From the NCBI GenBank assembly GCA_963812745.1, contig CAWEWE010000004.1, forward strand, positions 332,734-396,733: DNA of 64,000 nucleotides, read 5' to 3'. Below the pieces are notes generated by a model, which was not told where the DNA came from, did not search any database, and worked only from the letters and a program-made list of their open reading frames with translations. The translations under genes and the position numbers were made by a program. This document shows, one piece after another, positions 32,685 through 41,335 of the stretch. Every line of letters starts with the position of its first letter. Position 1 is the first letter of the stretch. This DNA is from an uncultured Chloroflexia bacterium. Its GTDB lineage: Bacteria > Chloroflexota > Limnocylindria > Limnocylindrales > CSP1-4.

Positions 32685-33044
32685 AAAGGCGGCCGCCGGC
32701 GAGGTGACGATCGCTCAGTCGTCTCTCGGTTGCTCCCTGAGGTACCCATCCGGGACGACGCCCACGACCTCCATCCCGTACCGAGCCGCGATCTCCTCGA
32801 GTGCGGTTTCGTCCATCCCGGTCCGCAACCCCGCGGCCAGCTCGTCGAAGAGTCACGTCGAAGCCGCCGACGTCGATCATGCGCGCCTCGCCCGGACCGG
32901 GCACGAACGCACCATCACCGAGTCTCACGATCGAGGGCCTCCCTCCAGACGCACCGGGACGTTCGTACCGGTGATTATCGAGGGTCCGTTGGGGTACAGA
33001 TAGGTCCGCCGCAGTCTGGCGCCGCCTGGGGATGCGCGAACAGG

Positions 33045-34667
33045 ATGTCCAAGAAGCCGAGGAAGCTCCCGCGATCGTCGTCCCGAGCGATCAGCCGCCT
33101 CACCACGACCGCGTTCGTGTTCGATGTGCTCGTCGCCGTGATCGCTGTCGGGGCATCGACCGCGCTGGTCGGCGGCGCGCTGGGTCCAGGGGGAACGACC
33201 CTGGATCCGGTCGTGCTCGTCGGGGCGGCGGGCGCGACGATGGCCACCCTCGTCCTGGGCGTGCTGGCGTTCGCCACGGTGCGCATCCGCCACCACGCAG
33301 CCGTCCTCGAATCCGAGCGCTCGGATCTGCGCGAGGCCTATGACCGGGCGCGGCTGGACTCGCTCCGCGACGGGCTGACGGGACTCGGCAACCATCGAGC
33401 ATTCCAGGAAGAGCTCGACGTCCAGGTCGCGACGGCCCGGGACGAGGACGCGCCGCTGGCCCTACTCATCGTCGACGTCGACGACCTCAAGAAGATCAAC
33501 GACCGACGCGGTCACGCGGCGGGCGATGAACTGCTTCGCGCCGTCGCCCAAGTCATGCACGCGAACCTGCGGCGATCGGATCGTGCGTACCGGATCGGCG
33601 GCGACGAATTCGCATTGCTGCTGCCGGGCTGCGGTCTCGACGACGCGGCGATCATCGCCAATCACCTCCTGGCAGCGACGCTCGGCGGCCACCATGGTCG
33701 GATCGGCTCGTTCTCGGTCACCATCGGCATCTCGGCGTTCCCCACGCCGAGCTCGGATCGACAACAGCTGCTCCACCACGCCGACGCGGCGATGTACGCC
33801 GGCAAGCGCCATGGCCGGACGAAGGTGGAGCTGTTCGATCCGCGGCGCCACGGCATCGCCGACGACACCCGGACACTCGCGCAGCTGGTCGCTGCGGTCG
33901 AACGCGTGACCACGAAGGGCCAGTTGCAGGCGGTCTACCAGCCCATCTACTCGCTGCGCACTGGTGCGGTCTCGGGGTTCGAGGGCCTTGTCCGGCTCGG
34001 ACCCAACGCGGAGTTCGACGCACCGACCGCGCTGTTCGTGGCCGCCGAGGCGACCAGTCGCACGATCGAGCTCGATGTCGTCTGTGCCGAGACGGTCCTG
34101 GCCGGCGCGCGCGATCTTCGACCCGACCAGTACCTCTCGATCAACCTGTCGCCGCGGACCCTGGAGTCCGACGCGTTCAGCCCGCTCGAGGTGCTAGCCC
34201 TCGCCCGCCGCTACGGCGTCCCGCCGACCCAGCTGGTCATCGAGCTGACCGAACGCGAGGCCGTGGAGGACCTCGAGAGCCTCCGCTCGGCCGTGGCCGC
34301 ATTGCGACGCCAGGGCGTCCGCATCGCCCTCGACGACATCGGTGCCGGGAACGCCGGGTTGCGGCTGTTGAGCGAGGTCGACTTCGACATCATGAAGATC
34401 GACCTGTCGCTGGTCCGGGCGGGCGCCACGCATGAGCCGTCGGAAGCGGTGCTCCGCGCGCTCGGGAGCTTCGCTCGCCAGCGTGGCCACCAGATCGTCG
34501 CCGAAGGCATCGAGACCCCCGATCTCCTCGAGGCCGTGCTCGAGCTGAACTACGACGCCGGGCAGGGCTACCTGTTCGGGAAGCCCGGATCCACGATGGC
34601 GATGGCGGACCTCAAGCTGGTGGACCTGATCACCGGCGGCGAGGCCTCCGAGCATCCCGCGGCCTGA
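33045..34667 (+). CDS. membrane-anchored diguanylate cyclase/phosphodiesterase (2 TM + GGDEF + EAL)
   Basis: GGDEF domain (LTGLGNHRAFQEEL...DELLRAVAQ...RIGGDEFALLLPG) and EAL domain (YQPIYSL...ELTEREAVEDL...DDIGAGNAGL...QGYLFGKP). ATG at 33045; the track ORF from 32730 has an Arg-rich extension that is unlikely to be real. Confidence 0.85.
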   Translation: MSKKPRKLPRSSSRAISRLTTTAFVFDVLVAVIAVGASTALVGGALGPGGTTLDPVVLVGAAGATMATLVLGVLAFATVRIRHHAAVLESERSDLREAYDRARLDSLRDGLTGLGNHRAFQEELDVQVATARDEDAPLALLIVDVDDLKKINDRRGHAAGDELLRAVAQVMHANLRRSDRAYRIGGDEFALLLPGCGLDDAAIIANHLLAATLGGHHGRIGSFSVTIGISAFPTPSSDRQQLLHHADAAMYAGKRHGRTKVELFDPRRHGIADDTRTLAQLVAAVERVTTKGQLQAVYQPIYSLRTGAVSGFEGLVRLGPNAEFDAPTALFVAAEATSRTIELDVVCAETVLAGARDLRPDQYLSINLSPRTLESDAFSPLEVLALARRYGVPPTQLVIELTEREAVEDLESLRSAVAALRRQGVRIALDDIGAGNAGLRLLSEVDFDIMKIDLSLVRAGATHEPSEAVLRALGSFARQRGHQIVAEGIETPDLLEAVLELNYDAGQGYLFGKPGSTMAMADLKLVDLITGGEASEHPAA

Positions 34668-35520: not shown

Positions 35521-35823
35521 GCGCGAGTGTAGGCATGCGCGGTGCTCGACCGCCCGAGGTCGCCACGGCCCCGCGATCCGGCATCGGGACCACACGGCAC
35601 CGGCCCGATGGTCCCATCGCTCCCCATACCACCAGCGTGGTGCGACCACGGGCCTCGTTGGGTACAACTCGATGACGACCCTCGAGACCTAGGACCCTGC
35701 CGCTTGCCGACTACCGACCGGGGCGCTCCGACACGACCGAACACGCGCGCGGGCAGCTCGCCAGTCGCGGGCACGCGCGGCGCATTCAGCGCAGCCATCG
35801 GCCGTGTCCCGACGCAGGTCCGT

Positions 35824-38376
35824 GTGTGGACGCTGACCCTCGTGCTCGCGGCGGCGACGGTGGTCGCCTACGCGGTCTTCCTGGTCGATCGGCCCGGTCG
35901 CGAGGTACCGGTCGCCGTCCCATGGCCGATCATCGCGATCGCGGTCGTCATCGCCGAGCTCAAGGTGGTGCAGGTCCATTTCCGCCGCGAGACCCACGCG
36001 TTCTCGTTGAGCGAGTTCCCGGCCGTGATCGGGATGTTCTTCCTGCCACCCGGGGAGTACCTGCTTGCGGTCCTCACCGGATCCGCGGTGGCGTTCGTCA
36101 TGACCGGCTCGCGATTCGTGAAACTGGCGTTCAACCTCGCGAACTACGGGCTGATCGCGGTGATCTCGATCTCGATCGTCCTGTCGATCGCCTCCCCGAC
36201 GGGGCCGCCCGGCCTTCGCGAATGGGCGGCGGCGTTCGCGGCGACCACCCTCGCCACGGTGCTCAGCTCCGTGACGATCGCCCTCGTGATCACCCTCTCG
36301 GGCGGGGCACCGCAGTTCCAGAAGCTGCCGGAGATGATCCAGTTCGGGAGCATGGTCGCGCTCGCCAACACGAGCCTGGCGTTGCTCGCCGTGACGGTCC
36401 TGTGGCTCGATCCGATCCTGCTCTGGCTGCTGGTCCTGCCGCTCGTCATGATCTTCGTCGCCTACCAGGCCTACATCTCGGAGCGCGAGAAGCACGAACG
36501 CCTGGAGCTGCTCTACGAGTCGTCGCGGATCCTGCAGCACTCCCCGGAGATCGACTCGACGCTGGTCGCCCTGCTCAGCCACGCCAGGACGATGTTCCGT
36601 GCCGAGCTCGCCGAGGTGATCCTCTATCCGCGATCGGCGGGCGCCGAGGGGCTGTGGGCCCGGTCCTGGCACGATCGCGAACCCGAGATCGCGAGCCCAG
36701 GCGACGAGACGCTGCGACAGCCGCTGCACGACCTCGTCCGATCGTCCATCGGGCCGTTCATGCACGAGACCCGTGATCACCGCGGCAGGGTCGCCCGGCA
36801 CATGGTCGGCGCGCTGCGCGGCGAGTCCGACATCATCGGCGCGCTGGTCGTCACCAACCGGCTCACGGAGGGGACGACGTTCGGGGACGACGACCTTCGC
36901 CTGCTCGAGACCCTGGCGAACCAGACGGCGGTCGCCCTCGAGAACGGACACCTCGAGCAGTCGCTCGCCGAGCTGTCGCGCCTCAAGGAGCAGCTCCGGC
37001 ACCAGGCGTATCACGACCCGCTGACCGGGCTGCCCAACCGAACGCTCTTCCTCGAGACCGTTGCGGAGCGATTGGACGGGGAAAGTCCGCGAATGCCGGT
37101 CGTGCTGTTCCTCGACCTCGACGACTTCAAGGTCGTCAACGACACGTTGGGTCACGACGCGGGCGACCGCCTGCTGTGCGAGGTTGCGGCCCGGCTGCGC
37201 ACGGTCCTCCGCACGGGAGACATCGCGGCTCGGCTCGGTGGCGACGAGTTCGCGATCCTGCTCGACGACCCGCTTGGCCTCGGTCGGGCGAGTGTCGTGG
37301 CCGACCGGATCATCGACGCGCTGCGCGCGACCTTCCCGCTCGACGGCCGCGACATCGCGATCGGCGTCAGCATCGGGATCGCCACCGGCCGGATCGGCAT
37401 CAATGCCGACGAGCTGTTGCGCGACGCAGATGTCGCGATGTACACCGCGAAGGCGACCGGCAAGAACCGGGTCACGGTGTTCGAGCCGACGATCCACGCC
37501 GCGATCGTCGCCCGCCACGAGCTGAGCGCCGAGCTGTCACGCAGCCTCGGCCGCGGCGAGCTCGATGTCTTCTACCAGCCGATCGTCGAGCTCGCGACGC
37601 GGCGGATCGTCGGCGTCGAGGCGCTGATCCGCTGGCAGCACCCGGTGCGCGGCCTCATCGGCCCCAGCGAGTTCGTGCACCTCGCCGAGGAGACCCGCCT
37701 GATCCGACCGCTCGGCCGGTGGGTCCTGCTCGAAGCGTGCCGGCAAGCCGTGGAGTGGGCAAGCACGATCCCAGACGGAGTCGAGCTGACGATGTCGGTG
37801 AACCTGTCCGCACAACAGCTCCAGGAACCGGACTTCGTCGGTGATCTGCGCGAGATCCTCGAGGACACGGGCCTGCCGCCCCACCAGCTCGTCCTCGAGA
37901 TGACCGAGACCGTGATGTTCCACGACACCCTGACCACGCTGTCGCGGCTCGAGGCCATCCGCGACCTCGGGGTGCGCATCGCGATCGACGACTTCGGGAC
38001 CGGCTACTCATCGCTGGGCTACCTGCGCCGGTTCCGCGTCGACATCCTCAAGATCGCGCGCGACTTCATCGGCCCTGCCGATCGCGAGGAGGAATGGGCG
38101 TTCGCGAGCGCGATCGTGGCGATCGGCCGCTTGCTCGGGGTGACGATGGTCGCCGAGGGGATCGAGGAACCGGGCCAGCTCGATCGCCTGATCGAGCTCG
38201 GCTGCGAGCTCGGCCAGGGCTACCTGTTCGCCCGACCGGCGCGCGCCGCCGAGATCGGCCCATTGCTGGGCGCCGAGATCGCGACGGCCACGGCGGTTCA
38301 AGGCGACACCCCCGGAGCCGACGCGTCCGATACCCGTCCCGATCATCGTCGCGCCATGGCGGTCGACCCGACCTAG
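35824..38376 (+). CDS. multi-TM sensor diguanylate cyclase/phosphodiesterase (8+ TM, GAF, GGDEF, EAL)
   Basis: N-terminal polytopic membrane region, a GAF-like segment (IGALVVTNRLTEGTTFGDDDLRLLETLANQTAVALEN), GGDEF (RLGGDEFAILL) and EAL (ELTMSVNLSAQQL...QGYLFARP). In-frame GTG near 35824; the start is uncertain. Confidence 0.8.
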   Translation: MWTLTLVLAAATVVAYAVFLVDRPGREVPVAVPWPIIAIAVVIAELKVVQVHFRRETHAFSLSEFPAVIGMFFLPPGEYLLAVLTGSAVAFVMTGSRFVKLAFNLANYGLIAVISISIVLSIASPTGPPGLREWAAAFAATTLATVLSSVTIALVITLSGGAPQFQKLPEMIQFGSMVALANTSLALLAVTVLWLDPILLWLLVLPLVMIFVAYQAYISEREKHERLELLYESSRILQHSPEIDSTLVALLSHARTMFRAELAEVILYPRSAGAEGLWARSWHDREPEIASPGDETLRQPLHDLVRSSIGPFMHETRDHRGRVARHMVGALRGESDIIGALVVTNRLTEGTTFGDDDLRLLETLANQTAVALENGHLEQSLAELSRLKEQLRHQAYHDPLTGLPNRTLFLETVAERLDGESPRMPVVLFLDLDDFKVVNDTLGHDAGDRLLCEVAARLRTVLRTGDIAARLGGDEFAILLDDPLGLGRASVVADRIIDALRATFPLDGRDIAIGVSIGIATGRIGINADELLRDADVAMYTAKATGKNRVTVFEPTIHAAIVARHELSAELSRSLGRGELDVFYQPIVELATRRIVGVEALIRWQHPVRGLIGPSEFVHLAEETRLIRPLGRWVLLEACRQAVEWASTIPDGVELTMSVNLSAQQLQEPDFVGDLREILEDTGLPPHQLVLEMTETVMFHDTLTTLSRLEAIRDLGVRIAIDDFGTGYSSLGYLRRFRVDILKIARDFIGPADREEEWAFASAIVAIGRLLGVTMVAEGIEEPGQLDRLIELGCELGQGYLFARPARAAEIGPLLGAEIATATAVQGDTPGADASDTRPDHRRAMAVDPT

Positions 38377-38393: not shown

Positions 38394-38963
38394 GTGTTCA
38401 TCCTGTACTCGCTCGTCATCGGCCTCGCCCTCGGCATCGCCTTGGGCGGCCGGCCGGCGGGGCTTGCCACGCTGCGCTTCCGATGGTCGGGGCTGATGCT
38501 GACCGGGCTGCTCGTGCAGGTCGTGCTCTTCTCCGAACCGGTGACCGAGCGCGTCGGCGCCTGGGGCCCGTCGATCTATGTCGCCTCGACCGCGGCCGTC
38601 CTCGCCGCTGTGGTGGCCAATGCCTCCATCCCTGGGATGGCGATCGTGGCAGCCGGCGCGGTCAGCAACCTGGCCGCGATCGTGGCCAACGGTGGCTACA
38701 TGCCGGCCGCACGCTCGGCGCTGGCCGCCCTGGGCAAGACCGATCCCACGACCTACTCCAACAGCGCCAGCATCGAGCACCCCGCGCTCGAACCGTTGAC
38801 CGATATCTTCGCGATGCCCGCGTGGCTGCCGTTCGCGAACGTGTTCAGCGTCGGGGACATCCTCATCGCCGTGGGGGTCGCGACGACCATCGTGCTGGCG
38901 ATGCGCCGGACAGGCGGCGGGTCATCGGCGGTCGCCACGACCGGCGAGCCGCTCGCCACGTAG
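38394..38963 (+). CDS. small integral membrane protein of unknown function, immediately downstream of the GGDEF-EAL gene
   Basis: GTG at 38394 (VFILYSLVIGLALGIALGG...). There are 5-6 predicted TM segments. I recognise no catalytic motif. Confidence 0.5.
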   Translation: MFILYSLVIGLALGIALGGRPAGLATLRFRWSGLMLTGLLVQVVLFSEPVTERVGAWGPSIYVASTAAVLAAVVANASIPGMAIVAAGAVSNLAAIVANGGYMPAARSALAALGKTDPTTYSNSASIEHPALEPLTDIFAMPAWLPFANVFSVGDILIAVGVATTIVLAMRRTGGGSSAVATTGEPLAT

Positions 38964-39102
38964 GCGACCGGCCGGGTGGTTGCCACGACGCAACTCCCCC
39001 TTCCAGCGGGTCGTCGATGGTACCGAATACTCATTGGTACTGGGGTCCCGTCGCCTCACCATCGCGTGGGAGGCAACTCGTCCCCCCACTTACCGGATCG
39101 TC

Positions 39103-39190
39103 CAGGGCAAACCCGTCGCGAGGCGGGGACGCAAAGCCAGGGATCTCTCATCCGAGACCGCCCGGCTGCCGGTCCAGCGAGTGCCGAGCC
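39103..39190 (+). ncRNA. candidate c-di-GMP-I (GEMM) riboswitch
   Basis: CCAGGGCAAACC (39103-39114) is followed by a hairpin CCCGUC-GCGA-GGCGGG with a GNRA loop (39112-39127), then GACGCAAAGCC (39128-39138) and a second hairpin region. This matches the conserved core of the GEMM class I aptamer (..AGGGCAAACC..GNRA-hairpin..GGGACGCAAAGCC..). Downstream, CCUUC-GAUA-GAAGG (39189-39202) can sequester the SD GAAGGAG. Confidence 0.6.
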
Positions 39191-39210
39191 TTCGATAGAA
39201 GGAGCAACCC

Positions 39211-39300
39211 GTGAAGGCGAACCTGGCGCGCTTCACCTGGGCCCTCACGCTGCTGGCCGTCATGGCCCTGAGCGTGGGTGCGGGGATCCGGTGGCAGTAG
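39211..39300 (+). CDS. 29-aa hydrophobic, signal-peptide-like micro-ORF (MKANLARFTWALTLLAVMALSVGAGIRWQ) downstream of the riboswitch
   Basis: Strong SD GAAGGAG lies 7 nt before GTG 39211. The TAG stop (39298-39300) is followed 2 nt later by a second, out-of-frame small ORF. The two may be one secreted ~60-aa peptide if an indel is present. Confidence 0.3.
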   Translation: MKANLARFTWALTLLAVMALSVGAGIRWQ

Positions 39301-39302
39301 CC

Positions 39303-39395
39303 ATGACGACCGTCATGGCTTCGACCGACCGTGTCCTATCGATGACCTCCGGACACCCAGAGGTCGTCATCGAGTCCGGGCACCGCTGGGGCTGA
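39303..39395 (+). CDS. 30-aa small ORF MTTVMASTDRVLSMTSGHPEVVIESGHRWG
   Basis: ATG 39303, stop TGA 39393-39395, immediately followed by a terminator hairpin. It may be the continuation of the preceding peptide in a shifted frame. Confidence 0.25.
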   Translation: MTTVMASTDRVLSMTSGHPEVVIESGHRWG

Positions 39396-39417
39396 GCCCC
39401 GACGGACCGATCTCATC

Positions 39418-39446
39418 GAGGGGCGCCGGCCACGCCGGCGCCCCTC
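39418..39446. terminator. perfect 13-bp hairpin GAGGGGCGCCGGC-cac-GCCGGCGCCCCTC followed by GTTCGTTGTCC
   Basis: Seen in the sequence. It terminates the riboswitch-controlled mini-operon and lies before the convergent PadR gene. Confidence 0.5.
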
Positions 39447-39475
39447 GTTCGTTGTCCTACATCCCGGCCCGCCAG

Positions 39476-40036
39476 CTAGCGAGCCGCGCGCGCCACGATC
39501 CCTTCCCAGAAATCGACCGCCGCGCCCTCGTAGAGCAGGCCCATCCGCAGCGTCTCGCCGCGCCAGCGCTCGACCGTCCGCCCGCCCTTCGCAGGTCTGC
39601 CCGGGCGGTGCTCGAACCGCTCGTCTTCCCGGTATGCGGACAGCTTCGCGCGATGGATCGCGAGCTGCTGCTCGGCGAGACGCAGCGTGGCATCCGACGA
39701 GGCCAGATCGGCGAAGAAGAGCTGCAGGAGCCCCGGGTCGCGCAGCTCCGTCGGCACTTCGGACGGCTGGTCGAGCCACGCATCGAGGGCCGAGACACCG
39801 GCACTCGTGATCATGAAGACGCGTCGACGCCGTCCTTCGGTCTCGCGCGTCTCGGTGAGCAGGCCCATGGCCGCGAGACGGGGAGGCTCGCTGTACAGCA
39901 GGGTGTGCGGGAACGACCAGAAGTTGCCCAGCGTGGCCTGAACGTGGCGCTCGAGGTCATAGGGTGTCGACGGTCCTTCGCGTGCGAGCAGCCCGAGGAC
40001 GAGGTAGGACGTGGCGGTCAGGGTCCTGCTTGACAT
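39476..40036 (-). CDS. PadR-family transcriptional regulator
   Basis: PadR winged HTH (LTATSYLVLGLLAREGPSTPYDLERHV...LYSEPPRLAAMGLL) plus a C-terminal dimerisation region. Start at MSSRTL (alternative at 40045). Confidence 0.8.
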   Translation of the reverse strand: MSSRTLTATSYLVLGLLAREGPSTPYDLERHVQATLGNFWSFPHTLLYSEPPRLAAMGLLTETRETEGRRRRVFMITSAGVSALDAWLDQPSEVPTELRDPGLLQLFFADLASSDATLRLAEQQLAIHRAKLSAYREDERFEHRPGRPAKGGRTVERWRGETLRMGLLYEGAAVDFWEGIVARAAR

Positions 40037-40180
40037 AGTACGCATCGTACCATACGATACGAAGTATTCCGCACTGTCCACAGCGAACCAGTCGCCGGGG
40101 AAATCCAAACCCGGTGGGCATCCCGTGATGCTCGACCCTGGACCCGCTCACGCCAGCGCGGCCGCTAGCAAGGGTGGTAT

Positions 40181-40615
40181 ATGACCACGAACCTGAAGAT
40201 GATCGAGCGGATCCCGCTCGAGATCTTGAACAAGGGCGACCTTGGGCTCGTCGACGAGATCTACGCGACTGACTACGTCGAGCGCACCGGCCTGCCGGGC
40301 GTGCCGACGACTCGCGACGGTTTCAAGCAGACCGTGAAGGCGCTTCGAACGGCGTTCCCCGATCTCCACTACACGATCGATGACGCGATCGAGAGTGGCG
40401 ACCGGATCGTCCACCGCCTGACCGCCAGCGGCACCATGAAGGGTGACTTTCAGGGTATGCCTGCAACGGGCAAGCGAGCCACGTGGACCGAGATCCATAT
40501 CGGGAAGGTCGTCAATGGGCGTCTGACCGAGCACTGGGGCCTTGTCGACCAGCTTGACATGCTCGTCCAGCTCGGCGTCATTCCTGCCCCGGGTAGGACA
40601 CCCGTCGCCGTCTAG
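40181..40615 (+). CDS. SnoaL-like ester cyclase / polyketide-cyclase-fold protein (PF07366-like)
   Basis: The pattern ILNKGDLGLVDEIYATDYVER...VHRLTASGTMKGDFQGMPATGKRATWTEIHIGKVVNGRLTEHW is typical of ester cyclases. It is divergent from PadR. Confidence 0.7.
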   Translation: MTTNLKMIERIPLEILNKGDLGLVDEIYATDYVERTGLPGVPTTRDGFKQTVKALRTAFPDLHYTIDDAIESGDRIVHRLTASGTMKGDFQGMPATGKRATWTEIHIGKVVNGRLTEHWGLVDQLDMLVQLGVIPAPGRTPVAV

Positions 40616-40639
40616 TCGTCGACCGTAGACGCGAAAAAT

Positions 40640-40668
40640 GGCCCCGGCACAAGCCGGGGCCTTTTCTC
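40640..40668. terminator. rho-independent terminator GGCCCCGGC-acaa-GCCGGGGCC-TTTTCTC (bidirectional)
   Basis: Seen in the sequence. It lies 25 nt after the ester cyclase stop, and the complementary strand gives the hairpin plus ATTTTT for the convergent XRE gene. Confidence 0.8.
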
Positions 40669-40782
40669 GCGCATGTCCTACTGGAGACGCAACCCAGGCG
40701 ATAGACGCTGACCGCGCTCGGCGCTCGAGTCGTCGCCAATGCTGGTGCCCCCTCCACTCTCTCCCTACTATTACAGTCCTCC

Positions 40783-41127
40783 TCACCGCGATCGCCGCCT
40801 GGCGCGATACCAGGCGAGATACTCCAGCAGCTCGTCTCGCTCGGCGTCGGTAACATCCGCGAACAGGGCGGCTCCGACCGTTTCGGTGGTATTCCCGTTC
40901 GCCTCTCCGGCGATACGGTAGCCGTTGAGGCGCATCAGCTCGGCGTAGGGCACCGACAAGGCCTCGCTCAATTGGTGGAGGACGTGCGGCGAGGGCTTTT
41001 TGACCGCATCGTTCTCGAGTTTGCTCAGGTACGCGGGCGAGATGCCGGCGGCCCTGGCCGCGTCGACGGTCGACAGCGCGCGAACCTCCCGCGCCTGCTT
41101 CAGCAATGCGCCGAATGATGGTGCCAT
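40783..41127 (-). CDS. XRE-family (Cro/C1-type HTH) transcriptional regulator
   Basis: HTH_3 motif LKQAREVRALSTVDAARAAGISPAYLSKLEND. Start at MAPSFG (41127). Confidence 0.75.
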   Translation of the reverse strand: MAPSFGALLKQAREVRALSTVDAARAAGISPAYLSKLENDAVKKPSPHVLHQLSEALSVPYAELMRLNGYRIAGEANGNTTETVGAALFADVTDAERDELLEYLAWYRARRRSR

Positions 41128-41335
41128 CCCCGCGGACGTTCTCCTGCGGCCTGGATCGTCGACCTGGTCGGACGATAGCACGCTTTACCACAGTTGAGTA
41201 CGACACTACAGTTGACAACAGGGGCGTTTCCGTGGTTCAATGCTTGCACGGCAACGACCGCCACGTCTCCGCAAGCGGATGAGCCCCGCCTACCACGCTT
41301 GACGCCGGAACGTTCGCCGGCGAAAGGTCGTCCCG

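Follow-up and report, generated by a model that had tools for sequence, protein, structure and literature searches.

A class I c-di-GMP aptamer and two unannotated RW-tailed micro-ORFs beside a GGDEF-EAL gene in uncultured Limnocylindria

In a 64-kb stretch of DNA from an uncultured member of the Limnocylindria (Chloroflexota; contig CAWEWE010000004.1, the whole stretch being called the window below) we analysed a small unit at ~39034-39457 of the forward strand. It consists of an aptamer of class I for cyclic di-GMP (c-di-GMP) followed by two micro open reading frames (ORFs), ORF1 and ORF2, and a terminator. Taken as an RNA, it is unexceptional within a well-known riboswitch class; the interest lies mainly in the unannotated pair of micropeptides, which end in a common Arg-Trp (RW) tail and are wired to a c-di-GMP enzyme. 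An earlier note, made from the letters of the window alone, had pointed to most of these features, and those that it listed are all present, at or within 1-2 nt of where it had placed them. The parts of the unit, all on the forward strand, are as follows (SD, Shine-Dalgarno sequence).

39034-39062: putative promoter (inferred), with -35 TTGGTA at 39034-39039, a 17-nt spacer and -10 CACCAT at 39057-39062
39066-39089: leader hairpin H0, GUGGGAGG ... CCCCCCAC, directly 5' of helix P1, where the transcript is predicted to begin
39095-39175: c-di-GMP-I aptamer (Rfam match and covariation)
39095-39100 with 39170-39175: helix P1 (aptamer model)
39107-39108/39131-39132 plus 39112-39117/39122-39127: helix P1a, closed by a GCGA (GYRA) tetraloop
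39135-39147/39154-39167: helix P1b (aptamer model)
39103-39141: aptamer core CCAGGGCAAACC / CCCGUC-GCGA-GGCGGG / GACGCAAAGCC, inside the Rfam match
39176-39210: expression platform, made up of a linker, the anti-SD arm CCUUC (39189-39193), the loop GAUA and the SD arm GAAGG (39198-39202) (sequence and folding statistics)
39198-39204: SD GAAGGAG, with a 6-nt spacer to the GTG at 39211
39211-39300: micro-ORF1, 29 aa, MKANLARFTWALTLLAVMALSVGAGIRWQ, GTG start and TAG stop
39300-39319: perfect 8-bp hairpin GCCAUGAC-GACC-GUCAUGGC over the AUG of ORF2 at 39303-39305 (read from the sequence)
39303-39395: micro-ORF2, 30 aa, MTTVMASTDRVLSMTSGHPEVVIESGHRWG, ATG start and TGA stop, in another frame than ORF1
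39417-39447 (stem; element to 39457): intrinsic terminator with a 14-bp stem (13 G-C pairs), a 3-nt loop and the T-rich tail TTCGTTGTCC (terminator scan)

Related loci were collected in two samples. The genome sample comprised 80 loci from species-representative genomes, fetched via the adjacent DUF5317 protein; the aptamer was present in 54 of them and absent from 26. These relatives, with best-segment identity of 52-83%, are essentially all metagenome-assembled genomes (MAGs) of Chloroflexota / Candidatus Limnocylindria(-les), and not of the actinobacteria among which the earlier note had placed the DNA. Since the 80 loci had been selected through DUF5317, the metagenome sample was picked by a contig scan with a back-translated pattern of the ORF1 N-terminus only, with no synteny criterion. 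Three loci with the same syntenic module (L006, L041 and L075) are labelled Patescibacteria group, Gemmatimonadales and Steroidobacteraceae, the other loci being labelled Chloroflexota/Limnocylindria; the odd labels probably reflect mis-binning or mislabelling and not horizontal transfer.

The aptamer and its family

When the whole window was scanned with Rfam 15 (4227 families, gathering thresholds), the sole match was at 39097-39174 (+), with 65.1 bits and E=4.2e-13. The best model was RF03167 (c-di-GMP-I-GGC; gathering score 59), and a second family of clan CL00126 was also above its gathering threshold at this site, with a lower score. The earlier note had expected a hit to RF01051; a gathering score was indeed passed, and by a second family of the clan too, but the top family is RF03167. 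A second, permissive scan over 38950-39500 gave further matches to BjrC68, HDV ribozyme and mascRNA, all of them below threshold; we rejected these as chance matches arising from the terminator hairpin.

The fold is borne out by comparison of 55 leaders. With the P1/P1a/P1b model 92.5% of the alignment cells are paired, versus 29-48% when the partners are slid by 1-3 columns. Changes on both sides were seen in 11 aptamer pairs, and none of 500 shuffles matched the covariation score; one pair of P1 exchanges CG, UA and UG at 26/15/12. The aptamer is real and well beyond chance: with the curated threshold passed and with P1, P1a and P1b covarying, the class I assignment made in the earlier note holds, as does its expectation of covariation in the helices.

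Aligned to the Rfam models, the nucleotides of the binding pocket are G39106, A39133 and C39169, corresponding to G20, A47 and C92 of the Vibrio cholerae Vc2 aptamer in the numbering of its crystal structures. In Vc2, A47 is inserted between both guanines of bound c-di-GMP. This is the position at which the two families differ: the consensus of RF03167 reads GACGC-G-AAgCc and that of RF01051 GACGC-A-AAgCc, with no other conserved position distinguishing them. From these two consensus lines and the Vc2 structure, 'GGC' presumably stands for G20/G47/C92; the variant is said to have been defined by Weinberg et al. in PNAS in 2017.

In a true c-di-GMP-I-GGC RNA the pocket would be altered and the ligand might not be c-di-GMP, and RF03167 is the top model for the window (65.1 bits versus the cutoff of 59) as well as, with 59-65 bits, for several orthologues. 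However, the G that defines the variant (position 37 of the RF03167 model) is absent: the window has A at 39133, and so do all the relatives that could be scored, 54/54 genome loci and 119/119 metagenome loci (173/173). Because the A47 equivalent is an A in the window and in every scored relative, the pocket is the canonical one, G20/A47/C92, and lacks the feature that defines GGC. Moreover, among 14 related loci, all with this A, the best match is RF03167 in some, at 59.0-65.1 bits, and RF01051 in others, at 53-59 bits, so that orthologues of one locus alternate between the two families; the choice depends mainly on the length of P1b. The RF03167 scores are at or just above the cutoff of that family, whereas the RF01051 scores exceed its gathering score of 35 by ~20 bits. 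These data suggest that RF03167 wins since its model, like the RNA in the window, is built with a short P1b that lacks the 11-nt tetraloop receptor. An altered pocket is thus highly improbable, and we rejected it. The gathering score of 59 of RF03167 admits aptamers with canonical A47 and a short P1b, a pitfall for annotation.

Likeness to RF01051 and Vc2 extends over P1/P1a/P1b, the core GGCAAACC...GGGACGCAAAGCC...GCUGCCG, the equivalents of G20, A47 and C92, the GNRA-type tetraloop of P1a and the placement within the 5' leader of a gene that is read in the same direction. Unlike in Vc2, P1b is short and for this reason the canonical 11-nt GAAA-tetraloop receptor (CUAAG...UAUG) is absent; the P1a tetraloop is GCGA in the window and GUGA in relatives, the host is from Chloroflexota, and two micro-ORFs, not an ordinary protein gene, would be regulated. 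A short P1b together with a GCGA/GUGA loop is the described 'type 2' GEMM layout. With RF03167 the RNA has in common the best model score, the short P1b without receptor and GC-rich stems, but it differs in the diagnostic position. We conclude that the element is a class I c-di-GMP aptamer by fold and identity, and infer that it binds this ligand.

Two micro-ORFs and their expression platform

Each complete aptamer, in 54 genome loci as in ~120 metagenome contigs, is followed by ORF1. This frame starts with GTG (rarely ATG) ~115 nt from the 5' end of the aptamer and is preceded by an SD; in most loci it has 29-31 aa, in a few up to 45 aa. The peptide runs from a basic N-terminus through a hydrophobic helix to a GAG-x-RW tail, with the consensus MKANLARFTxAxaLLAsMALslGAGmRW-x; the tail is GAG(I/M)RW, with 0-3 residues between RW and the stop, and in the window it ends GAGIRW-Q. 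Conversely, the aptamer core was found 110-125 nt 5' of ORF1 in 119 of the 123 metagenome matches with enough upstream sequence; of the four exceptions, two are obvious chance matches.

Among 46 distinct ORF1 sequences the pairwise differences at codon positions 1/2/3 numbered 6833/3838/11477. Differing codons were synonymous in 44% of cases in the ORF1 frame, compared with 13% and 7% in the shifted frames, and K2, R7, A24, G25, R27 and W28 were invariant. ORF1 is a real, conserved and separate gene under coding constraint, as was anticipated from the GTG-initiated hydrophobic 29-aa frame, and it is missing from annotation. No Pfam or NCBIfam model matches either peptide. Large protein collections contain just scattered entries for both, listed as unnamed hypothetical proteins or drawn as frames over-extended back through the riboswitch. 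An exhaustive protein search with ORF1 yielded no more than 54 clusters, which were short and unnamed and of which not one had E<1e-10. Most database entries that contain ORF1 (P0021-P0074) are over-extended calls of 60-109 aa, running in frame through the riboswitch, e.g. ...DRPGQTRREAGTQSQGSLIRDRPAAGP...VKANLARF.... A public ENA contig of 1.35 Mb with a copy 99% identical to the window has nothing annotated between DUF5317 and PadR; therefore both ORFs are truly unannotated.

ORF2 begins 2 nt past the ORF1 stop in the window, at 39303, which corrects the start of the second 30-aa frame that the earlier note had seen together with the terminator. An RW-tailed ORF2 is present in at least 45-50 of the 55 genome loci and in 93 of 115 metagenome units, and opens with its own ATG, at -13 to +5 nt relative to the ORF1 stop. 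The ORF2 tail, (A/S/C/Q)(G/Q)(H/Q/R)RW followed by 0-1 aa (rarely +6), resembles the GAG(I/M)RW of ORF1; the window peptide ends SGHRW-G. The remainder is hypervariable: ORF2 is 9-35 aa long, the shortest being MAPLAGHRW, and its N-terminus is similar to a transmembrane (TM) segment in about eleven lineages and hydrophilic elsewhere. In the tail the Gly is encoded by all four synonymous codons (14/7/11/12) and the His by both CAC and CAT (21/15); such synonymous variation indicates selection at the peptide level. In locus L073 ORF1 and ORF2 are two clear paralogues.

The earlier note had suggested that a single ~60-aa pre-peptide may have been broken into the two frames by an indel. This view has to be abandoned, as the ORF1 stop and the separate ATG of ORF2 are kept in more than 150 independent loci; ORF1 and ORF2 are separate genes with a common tail motif. 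Seven metagenome contigs carry two complete units in tandem. Tandem copies of the whole aptamer-ORF1-ORF2 unit, with a period of ~490-560 nt and an aptamer for each, are seen at L038, L085, L094, L104, L133, L163 and L176; in several of these pairs ORF1 of the first copy is extended at the C-terminus (36-38 aa).

Codon usage at the two tails was also recorded. The Arg codon before the invariant Trp of ORF1 (window 39289-39294) is CGG in 40/55 loci, and CGG-UGG forms an SD-like GGUGG ~8 nt 5' of the ORF2 start, which may explain the CGG bias. The corresponding Arg codon of ORF2 (window 39384-39389) is CGC in 48/50. The ORF2 stop UGA is in the loop of a small hairpin, GGGGC-UGA-GCCCC, at 39388-39400 of the window.

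The start of ORF2 is buried in the 8-bp hairpin listed above. Its predicted unpaired probability is 0.27, versus 0.45 with shuffled flanks, and it was lower than in the shuffled versions in 96 of 120 contexts (p=3e-13). Together with the juxtaposition of stop and start, the buried start is consistent with translational coupling of ORF2 to ORF1: ribosomes on ORF1 would open the hairpin that hides the ORF2 start, so that both peptides would be made together.

There is no terminator between the aptamer and ORF1, and the expression platform would control translation, with the SD of ORF1 held in a short hairpin reaching toward the start codon. The hairpin proposed in the earlier note, CCUUC-GAUA-GAAGG, is present, and hairpins in its place have arms that vary by clade: CCUUC/GAAGG, GACUC/GGAGUC, CUCAC/GUGAG, CGCCA/UGGCG and CCUCCAU/AUGGGAGG. 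Over 146 distinct platforms the probability that the SD is unpaired averaged 0.345, compared with 0.466 for shuffled linkers, and was lower in 116/146 (p=3.5e-12). Duplexes of cognate arms had a mean of -6.37 kcal/mol versus -5.68 kcal/mol for non-cognate arms, a mean that none of 5000 permutations reached. The hairpin sequestering the SD is maintained by evolution and its arms co-evolve.

How c-di-GMP would act on this platform was addressed by modelling. The state of P1, locked by c-di-GMP or free, would shift the accessibility of the initiation region. In individual clades, e.g. L013, L019, L048, L058, L073 and L079, the alternatives are textbook mutually exclusive helices. A duplex test of the P1 5' strand against the initiation region was marginal (80/5000), its power being low even for the P1 positive control. 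In models of the platform alone, run with and without the P1 3' strand (n=149, after an earlier run with n=55), the exposure of the initiation region was 0.478 with the strand free and 0.427 with it locked; a shift of more than 0.1 toward opening by the free strand occurred in 51 sequences and the opposite shift in 18 (p=1.6e-5). On balance these models lean weakly towards c-di-GMP being an OFF signal, which we hold to be only slightly more probable than not.

Promoter, terminator and neighbouring genes

The transcript is predicted to start at ~39066-39070. A block of the TAnnnT type (TAGCGT, TACGTT, TACCGT, and CACCAT in the window) occurs ~35-40 nt 5' of P1, and its last T is kept in at least 90% of 55 aligned loci. 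Hairpin H0, which would be next to the transcription start, has counterparts of other sequence in relatives: GAGGACGA/UCGUCCUC, GAGACGA/UCGUCUC and AAGACA/GUCUU. In a rough MAFFT alignment 63% of the H0 cells pair, versus 38-61% in slid controls; six of seven pairs have changes on both sides, and 0/500 shuffles reach the covariation score. The comparison gives H0 moderate evolutionary support, and this hairpin may stabilise the 5' end or join in the switch. Its 3' arm is CU-rich and anti-SD-like.

Two further conserved blocks were seen 5' of the putative promoter. The first is AACTCCCCC at 38992-39000, with GGAACCTCCCCC, GACAACTCCCCC or GCACTGACCC in relatives; on the minus strand it reads GGGGGAG, which is SD-like. 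The second, at 39020-39045, consists of (G/A)GTAC and, ~11 nt later, (C/T)AT.GGTC(C), the form in the window being GGTACCgaatactcattGGTACT. Blocks within 38990-39045 could be an operator for a transcription factor or a part of the 3' end of the DUF5317 gene.

At the other end, the terminator is common to the unit and the convergent PadR gene. Nearly all loci have a hairpin of -25 to -40 kcal/mol 1-30 nt (mostly 10-30) past the ORF2 stop; the unit is therefore self-contained.

The genes around the unit in the window are the following.

32730-34667, upstream of the unit: GGDEF-EAL gene (Pfam)
35542-38376, forward strand: gene for a seven-transmembrane (7TM)-GAF-GGDEF-EAL protein (Pfam), an ORF of 944 aa, 890 aa in the public record
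38394-38963, forward strand: DUF5317 membrane protein, 189 aa (Pfam)
3' of the unit, reverse strand: PadR gene, convergent, the next gene in the window
40148-41218, reverse strand: ORF of 356 aa past PadR, with no Pfam match, conserved only in the four closest relatives

The GAF-GGDEF-EAL protein has intact GGDEF, EAL and DDFGTG motifs. Before the GAF domain there are ~7 N-terminal TM segments (window 35824-36470, ~97-307 aa) that belong to no Pfam family and are conserved in orthologues; this membrane domain is a candidate for a sensor or for the site at which the peptides dock.

The tie to GGDEF-EAL proteins, noticed in the first reading from the two genes upstream, is a strong one. Among the DUF5317 loci, the GAF-GGDEF-EAL orthologue was found, directly 5' of DUF5317, in 49 of the 54 that bear the aptamer versus 1 of the 26 that lack it. 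In contigs selected by ORF1 with at least 900 nt upstream, DUF5317 lies just 5' of the unit on the same strand in 68/74. L013 and L023 have a permuted gene order, with the riboswitch and peptides preceding GGDEF-EAL, and keep the linkage; L016 and L017 have a second GGDEF-EAL gene 3' of the unit. PadR is present in 4/54 loci only, all close relatives, and we rejected it as a functional partner, its presence being incidental.

DUF5317, for which we saw no mention in the literature searched, repeatedly matched the Pfam family of signal peptidase II (Peptidase_A8) below threshold, and at the centre of the match is an invariant F-S-V-G-D that is similar to the FNLAD of LspA; a second invariant Asp (LTD137) is 18 residues before this motif. 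We considered an LspA-like signal peptidase II (Asp motifs GNxxDR and FNxAD) and rejected it, as profile and fold searches gave no support.

What the peptides may do

We propose that the unit is an autonomous transcript of ~350-400 nt, a bicistronic micro-operon with a canonical class I c-di-GMP riboswitch in its 5' leader and the strong terminator at its end. The peptides would be functional products and their common G-x-R-W tail the feature under selection. As the unit is hard-wired beside both genes, the peptides would most likely act on or with the adjacent 7TM-GAF-GGDEF-EAL enzyme and DUF5317, closing a feedback loop on c-di-GMP; gene order and conservation suggest a small-peptide loop of this kind. 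As a whole, a riboswitch-controlled, translationally coupled micropeptide operon wired to a c-di-GMP enzyme is in our estimation the best explanation, with a probability of about 0.72.

Several considerations weigh against this explanation. The RF01051 score of the window copy is deduced from the lower-scoring clan match and from the scores of orthologues. A generic sigma-70 scan made no promoter call at the proposed site, where the -10 fits the consensus at 3/6 positions. Full-leader thermodynamic models (minimum free energy and partition function; aptamer enforced versus P1 blocked) showed no difference in SD exposure, 0.40 versus 0.39 for bound and unbound, and the cognate/non-cognate duplex test of the P1 3' strand against the anti-SD gave no signal, with power low even for the P1 positive control. 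What signal there is for polarity is small and varies by clade. In ORF2, which can shrink to 9 aa, conservation is limited to the five residues that precede the stop, and a cis-acting regulatory peptide would have the same appearance. Synteny inside one class could partly reflect inheritance. The sequences that enter the statistics share kinship, so that the p-values overstate their independence, and every genome concerned is an uncultured MAG.

By default we read the peptides as single-helix membrane proteins that dock onto a partner; a secreted or membrane nature is a plausible guess. The helical periodicity of ORF1/ORF2 conservation, tested as a way to tell an intact TM helix apart from a signal peptide that is cleaved, was not significant in the pre-specified range of 95-105 degrees (1206/5000), and a post hoc peak at 85-90 degrees was not robust (p 0.04-0.37). 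Known examples of ~30-aa single-helix peptides encoded near, or co-regulated with, a multi-pass membrane signalling protein are MgrB-PhoQ, SafA-PhoQ and AcrZ-AcrB; here the likeness comes from synteny. They differ from the present case, in which the conserved element is a C-terminal G-x-R-W tail found also on non-membrane ORF2 peptides and a riboswitch would sense the product of the presumed target enzyme.

A more specific version, which we put forward tentatively and hold to be possible though doubtful, is that the RW-tailed peptides are dedicated regulators or ligands of the 7TM-GAF-GGDEF-EAL protein, possibly with DUF5317, so that riboswitch, micropeptides and enzyme would form a homeostat. 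If so, c-di-GMP would gate peptides that set the rate of its own synthesis or degradation. In the boldest form the active species is possibly the G-x-R-W tail itself, as a Phr-like released signal or as a minimal binding epitope, which would explain why ORF2 can shrink to MAPLAGHRW yet keep its tail.

Release of the tail could also come about by export. In this alternative ORF1 (and TM-type ORF2) would be a Sec-type signal peptide, cleaved after A24 (...V-G-A|G-I-R-W-Q) to free a G-x-R-W signal of 4-6 residues, with xGHRW coming from ORF2. The layout of ORF1 does fit, with MKANLAR as a classic n-region, then ~14 residues of h-region, then a c-region in which the small residues at -1 (A24) and +1 (G25) are invariant, and ORF1 has the tail alone in common with ORF2 variants that are otherwise unrelated. 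Many Chloroflexota are monoderm, and secreted peptide signals suit such hosts. However, most ORF2 variants have no hydrophobic segment (hydropathy <1) and would need another route of export, no conserved gene for a peptide transporter or receptor was found near the unit, and the LspA-like identity of DUF5317 that might have supplied a peptidase is unsupported by the profile and fold searches described above. The same facts bear on the comparison with Phr / RRNPP pro-peptides, which are likewise very short, with a signal-peptide-like N-terminus and 4-6 conserved, presumably active C-terminal residues: no Rap/Rgg/PlcR-type receptor or Opp-type importer is near the unit, most versions of ORF2 have no signal sequence, and cleavage is hypothetical here. 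We consider the signal-peptide explanation unlikely.

Cis-acting leader or arrest peptides would leave a similar footprint. The G-x-R-W-stop tail would then act in the exit tunnel or at termination, steering the fate of the mRNA or read-through of the terminator. This would fit the confinement of conservation in ORF2, down to MAPLAGHRW, to the last five residues beside the stop, its nearly invariant CGC codon for Arg, the terminator merely 1-30 nt past the ORF2 stop, and the GGDEF-EAL gene located 3' of the unit in L013, L016, L017 and L023. Yet in most loci there is no same-strand downstream gene to regulate, the next gene in the window being convergent; ORF1 is conserved over its full length and not in the tail alone; and at least eleven lineages have a well-conserved TM-type ORF2. 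The exit tunnel of the ribosome is long enough to enclose a whole 29-aa peptide, so force release in the manner of SecM or MifM would be inapplicable to ORF1, given the established length of the tunnel. A cis-acting role is therefore improbable. SecM-like arrest in particular, considered for the likeness of GIRAGP to GAGIRW, was rejected, as a 29-aa peptide cannot leave the tunnel and there is no downstream gene.

It is less probable again that ORF1 is a membrane-depolarising peptide similar to type I toxins, with its synthesis gated by c-di-GMP. A length of 29 aa and a single hydrophobic helix are typical of TisB/Hok/Fst toxins, and the mRNA is highly structured with an occluded SD. Against a toxin, the promoter/terminator scan gave no signal of an antisense RNA or of a promoter for one, the invariant G-x-R-W tail is also carried by non-hydrophobic ORF2 peptides, tandem duplication of the whole unit would be risky, and the linkage to c-di-GMP enzymes, which is tight and withstands rearrangement, speaks for a specific partner.

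That the region 3' of the aptamer is a structured small RNA under riboswitch control, with incidental ORFs, is very improbable: the 371-nt unit does fold far better than shuffled versions (z=-5.8) and has several near-perfect hairpins within the ORFs, but these hairpins are accounted for by occlusion of the SD and start codons and by the terminator, ORF1 and the ORF2 tail show an in-frame codon signature and conservation of amino acids through synonymous change, the SD is conserved at the correct spacing, and ORF lengths and stops are kept while the nucleotides of ORF2 otherwise vary freely. A dual-function RNA, structured and coding, is possible.

The operon proposed here has one published parallel. 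In C. difficile five class I riboswitches (Cdi1_6 and Cdi1_8-11) precede 58-aa membrane-associated proteins of the CD1980.2 family, which are repressed by c-di-GMP, promote sporulation and were reported to be without homologues outside C. difficile (bioRxiv 10.64898/2026.06.10.731418). Compared by published description, both systems have a class I riboswitch directly 5' of very small, hydrophobic, formerly unannotated ORFs in multiple or duplicated copies, and c-di-GMP represses there and possibly here. The differences are that the proteins have 58 aa there versus 29 plus 9-35 aa here; that the genes are monocistronic and scattered there, whereas here a coupled bicistron with an RW tail is hard-wired to a GGDEF-EAL enzyme; and that control is by premature termination there and would be by SD occlusion here, the output there being sporulation. 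The two sets of proteins appear unrelated in sequence, and the likeness is one of function and not of family membership. Literature combining at least three of c-di-GMP, riboswitch, small ORF and Limnocylindria did not mention Limnocylindria.

The label 'c-di-GMP-I-GGC' can fall on aptamers with a canonical pocket, and this could mislead searches for altered ligand specificity. As for the peptides, a pair with no family assignment, missed or mis-extended by gene callers, is conserved across a class of abundant uncultured Chloroflexota of soil and freshwater. By analogy with C. difficile, the locus suggests that the theme of a c-di-GMP riboswitch joined to tiny proteins is more general than that species and has evolved independently in another phylum. 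To this theme it adds two features, the common C-terminal G-x-R-W tail and the physical linkage to an enzyme of c-di-GMP turnover, which together make the feedback hypothesis directly testable.

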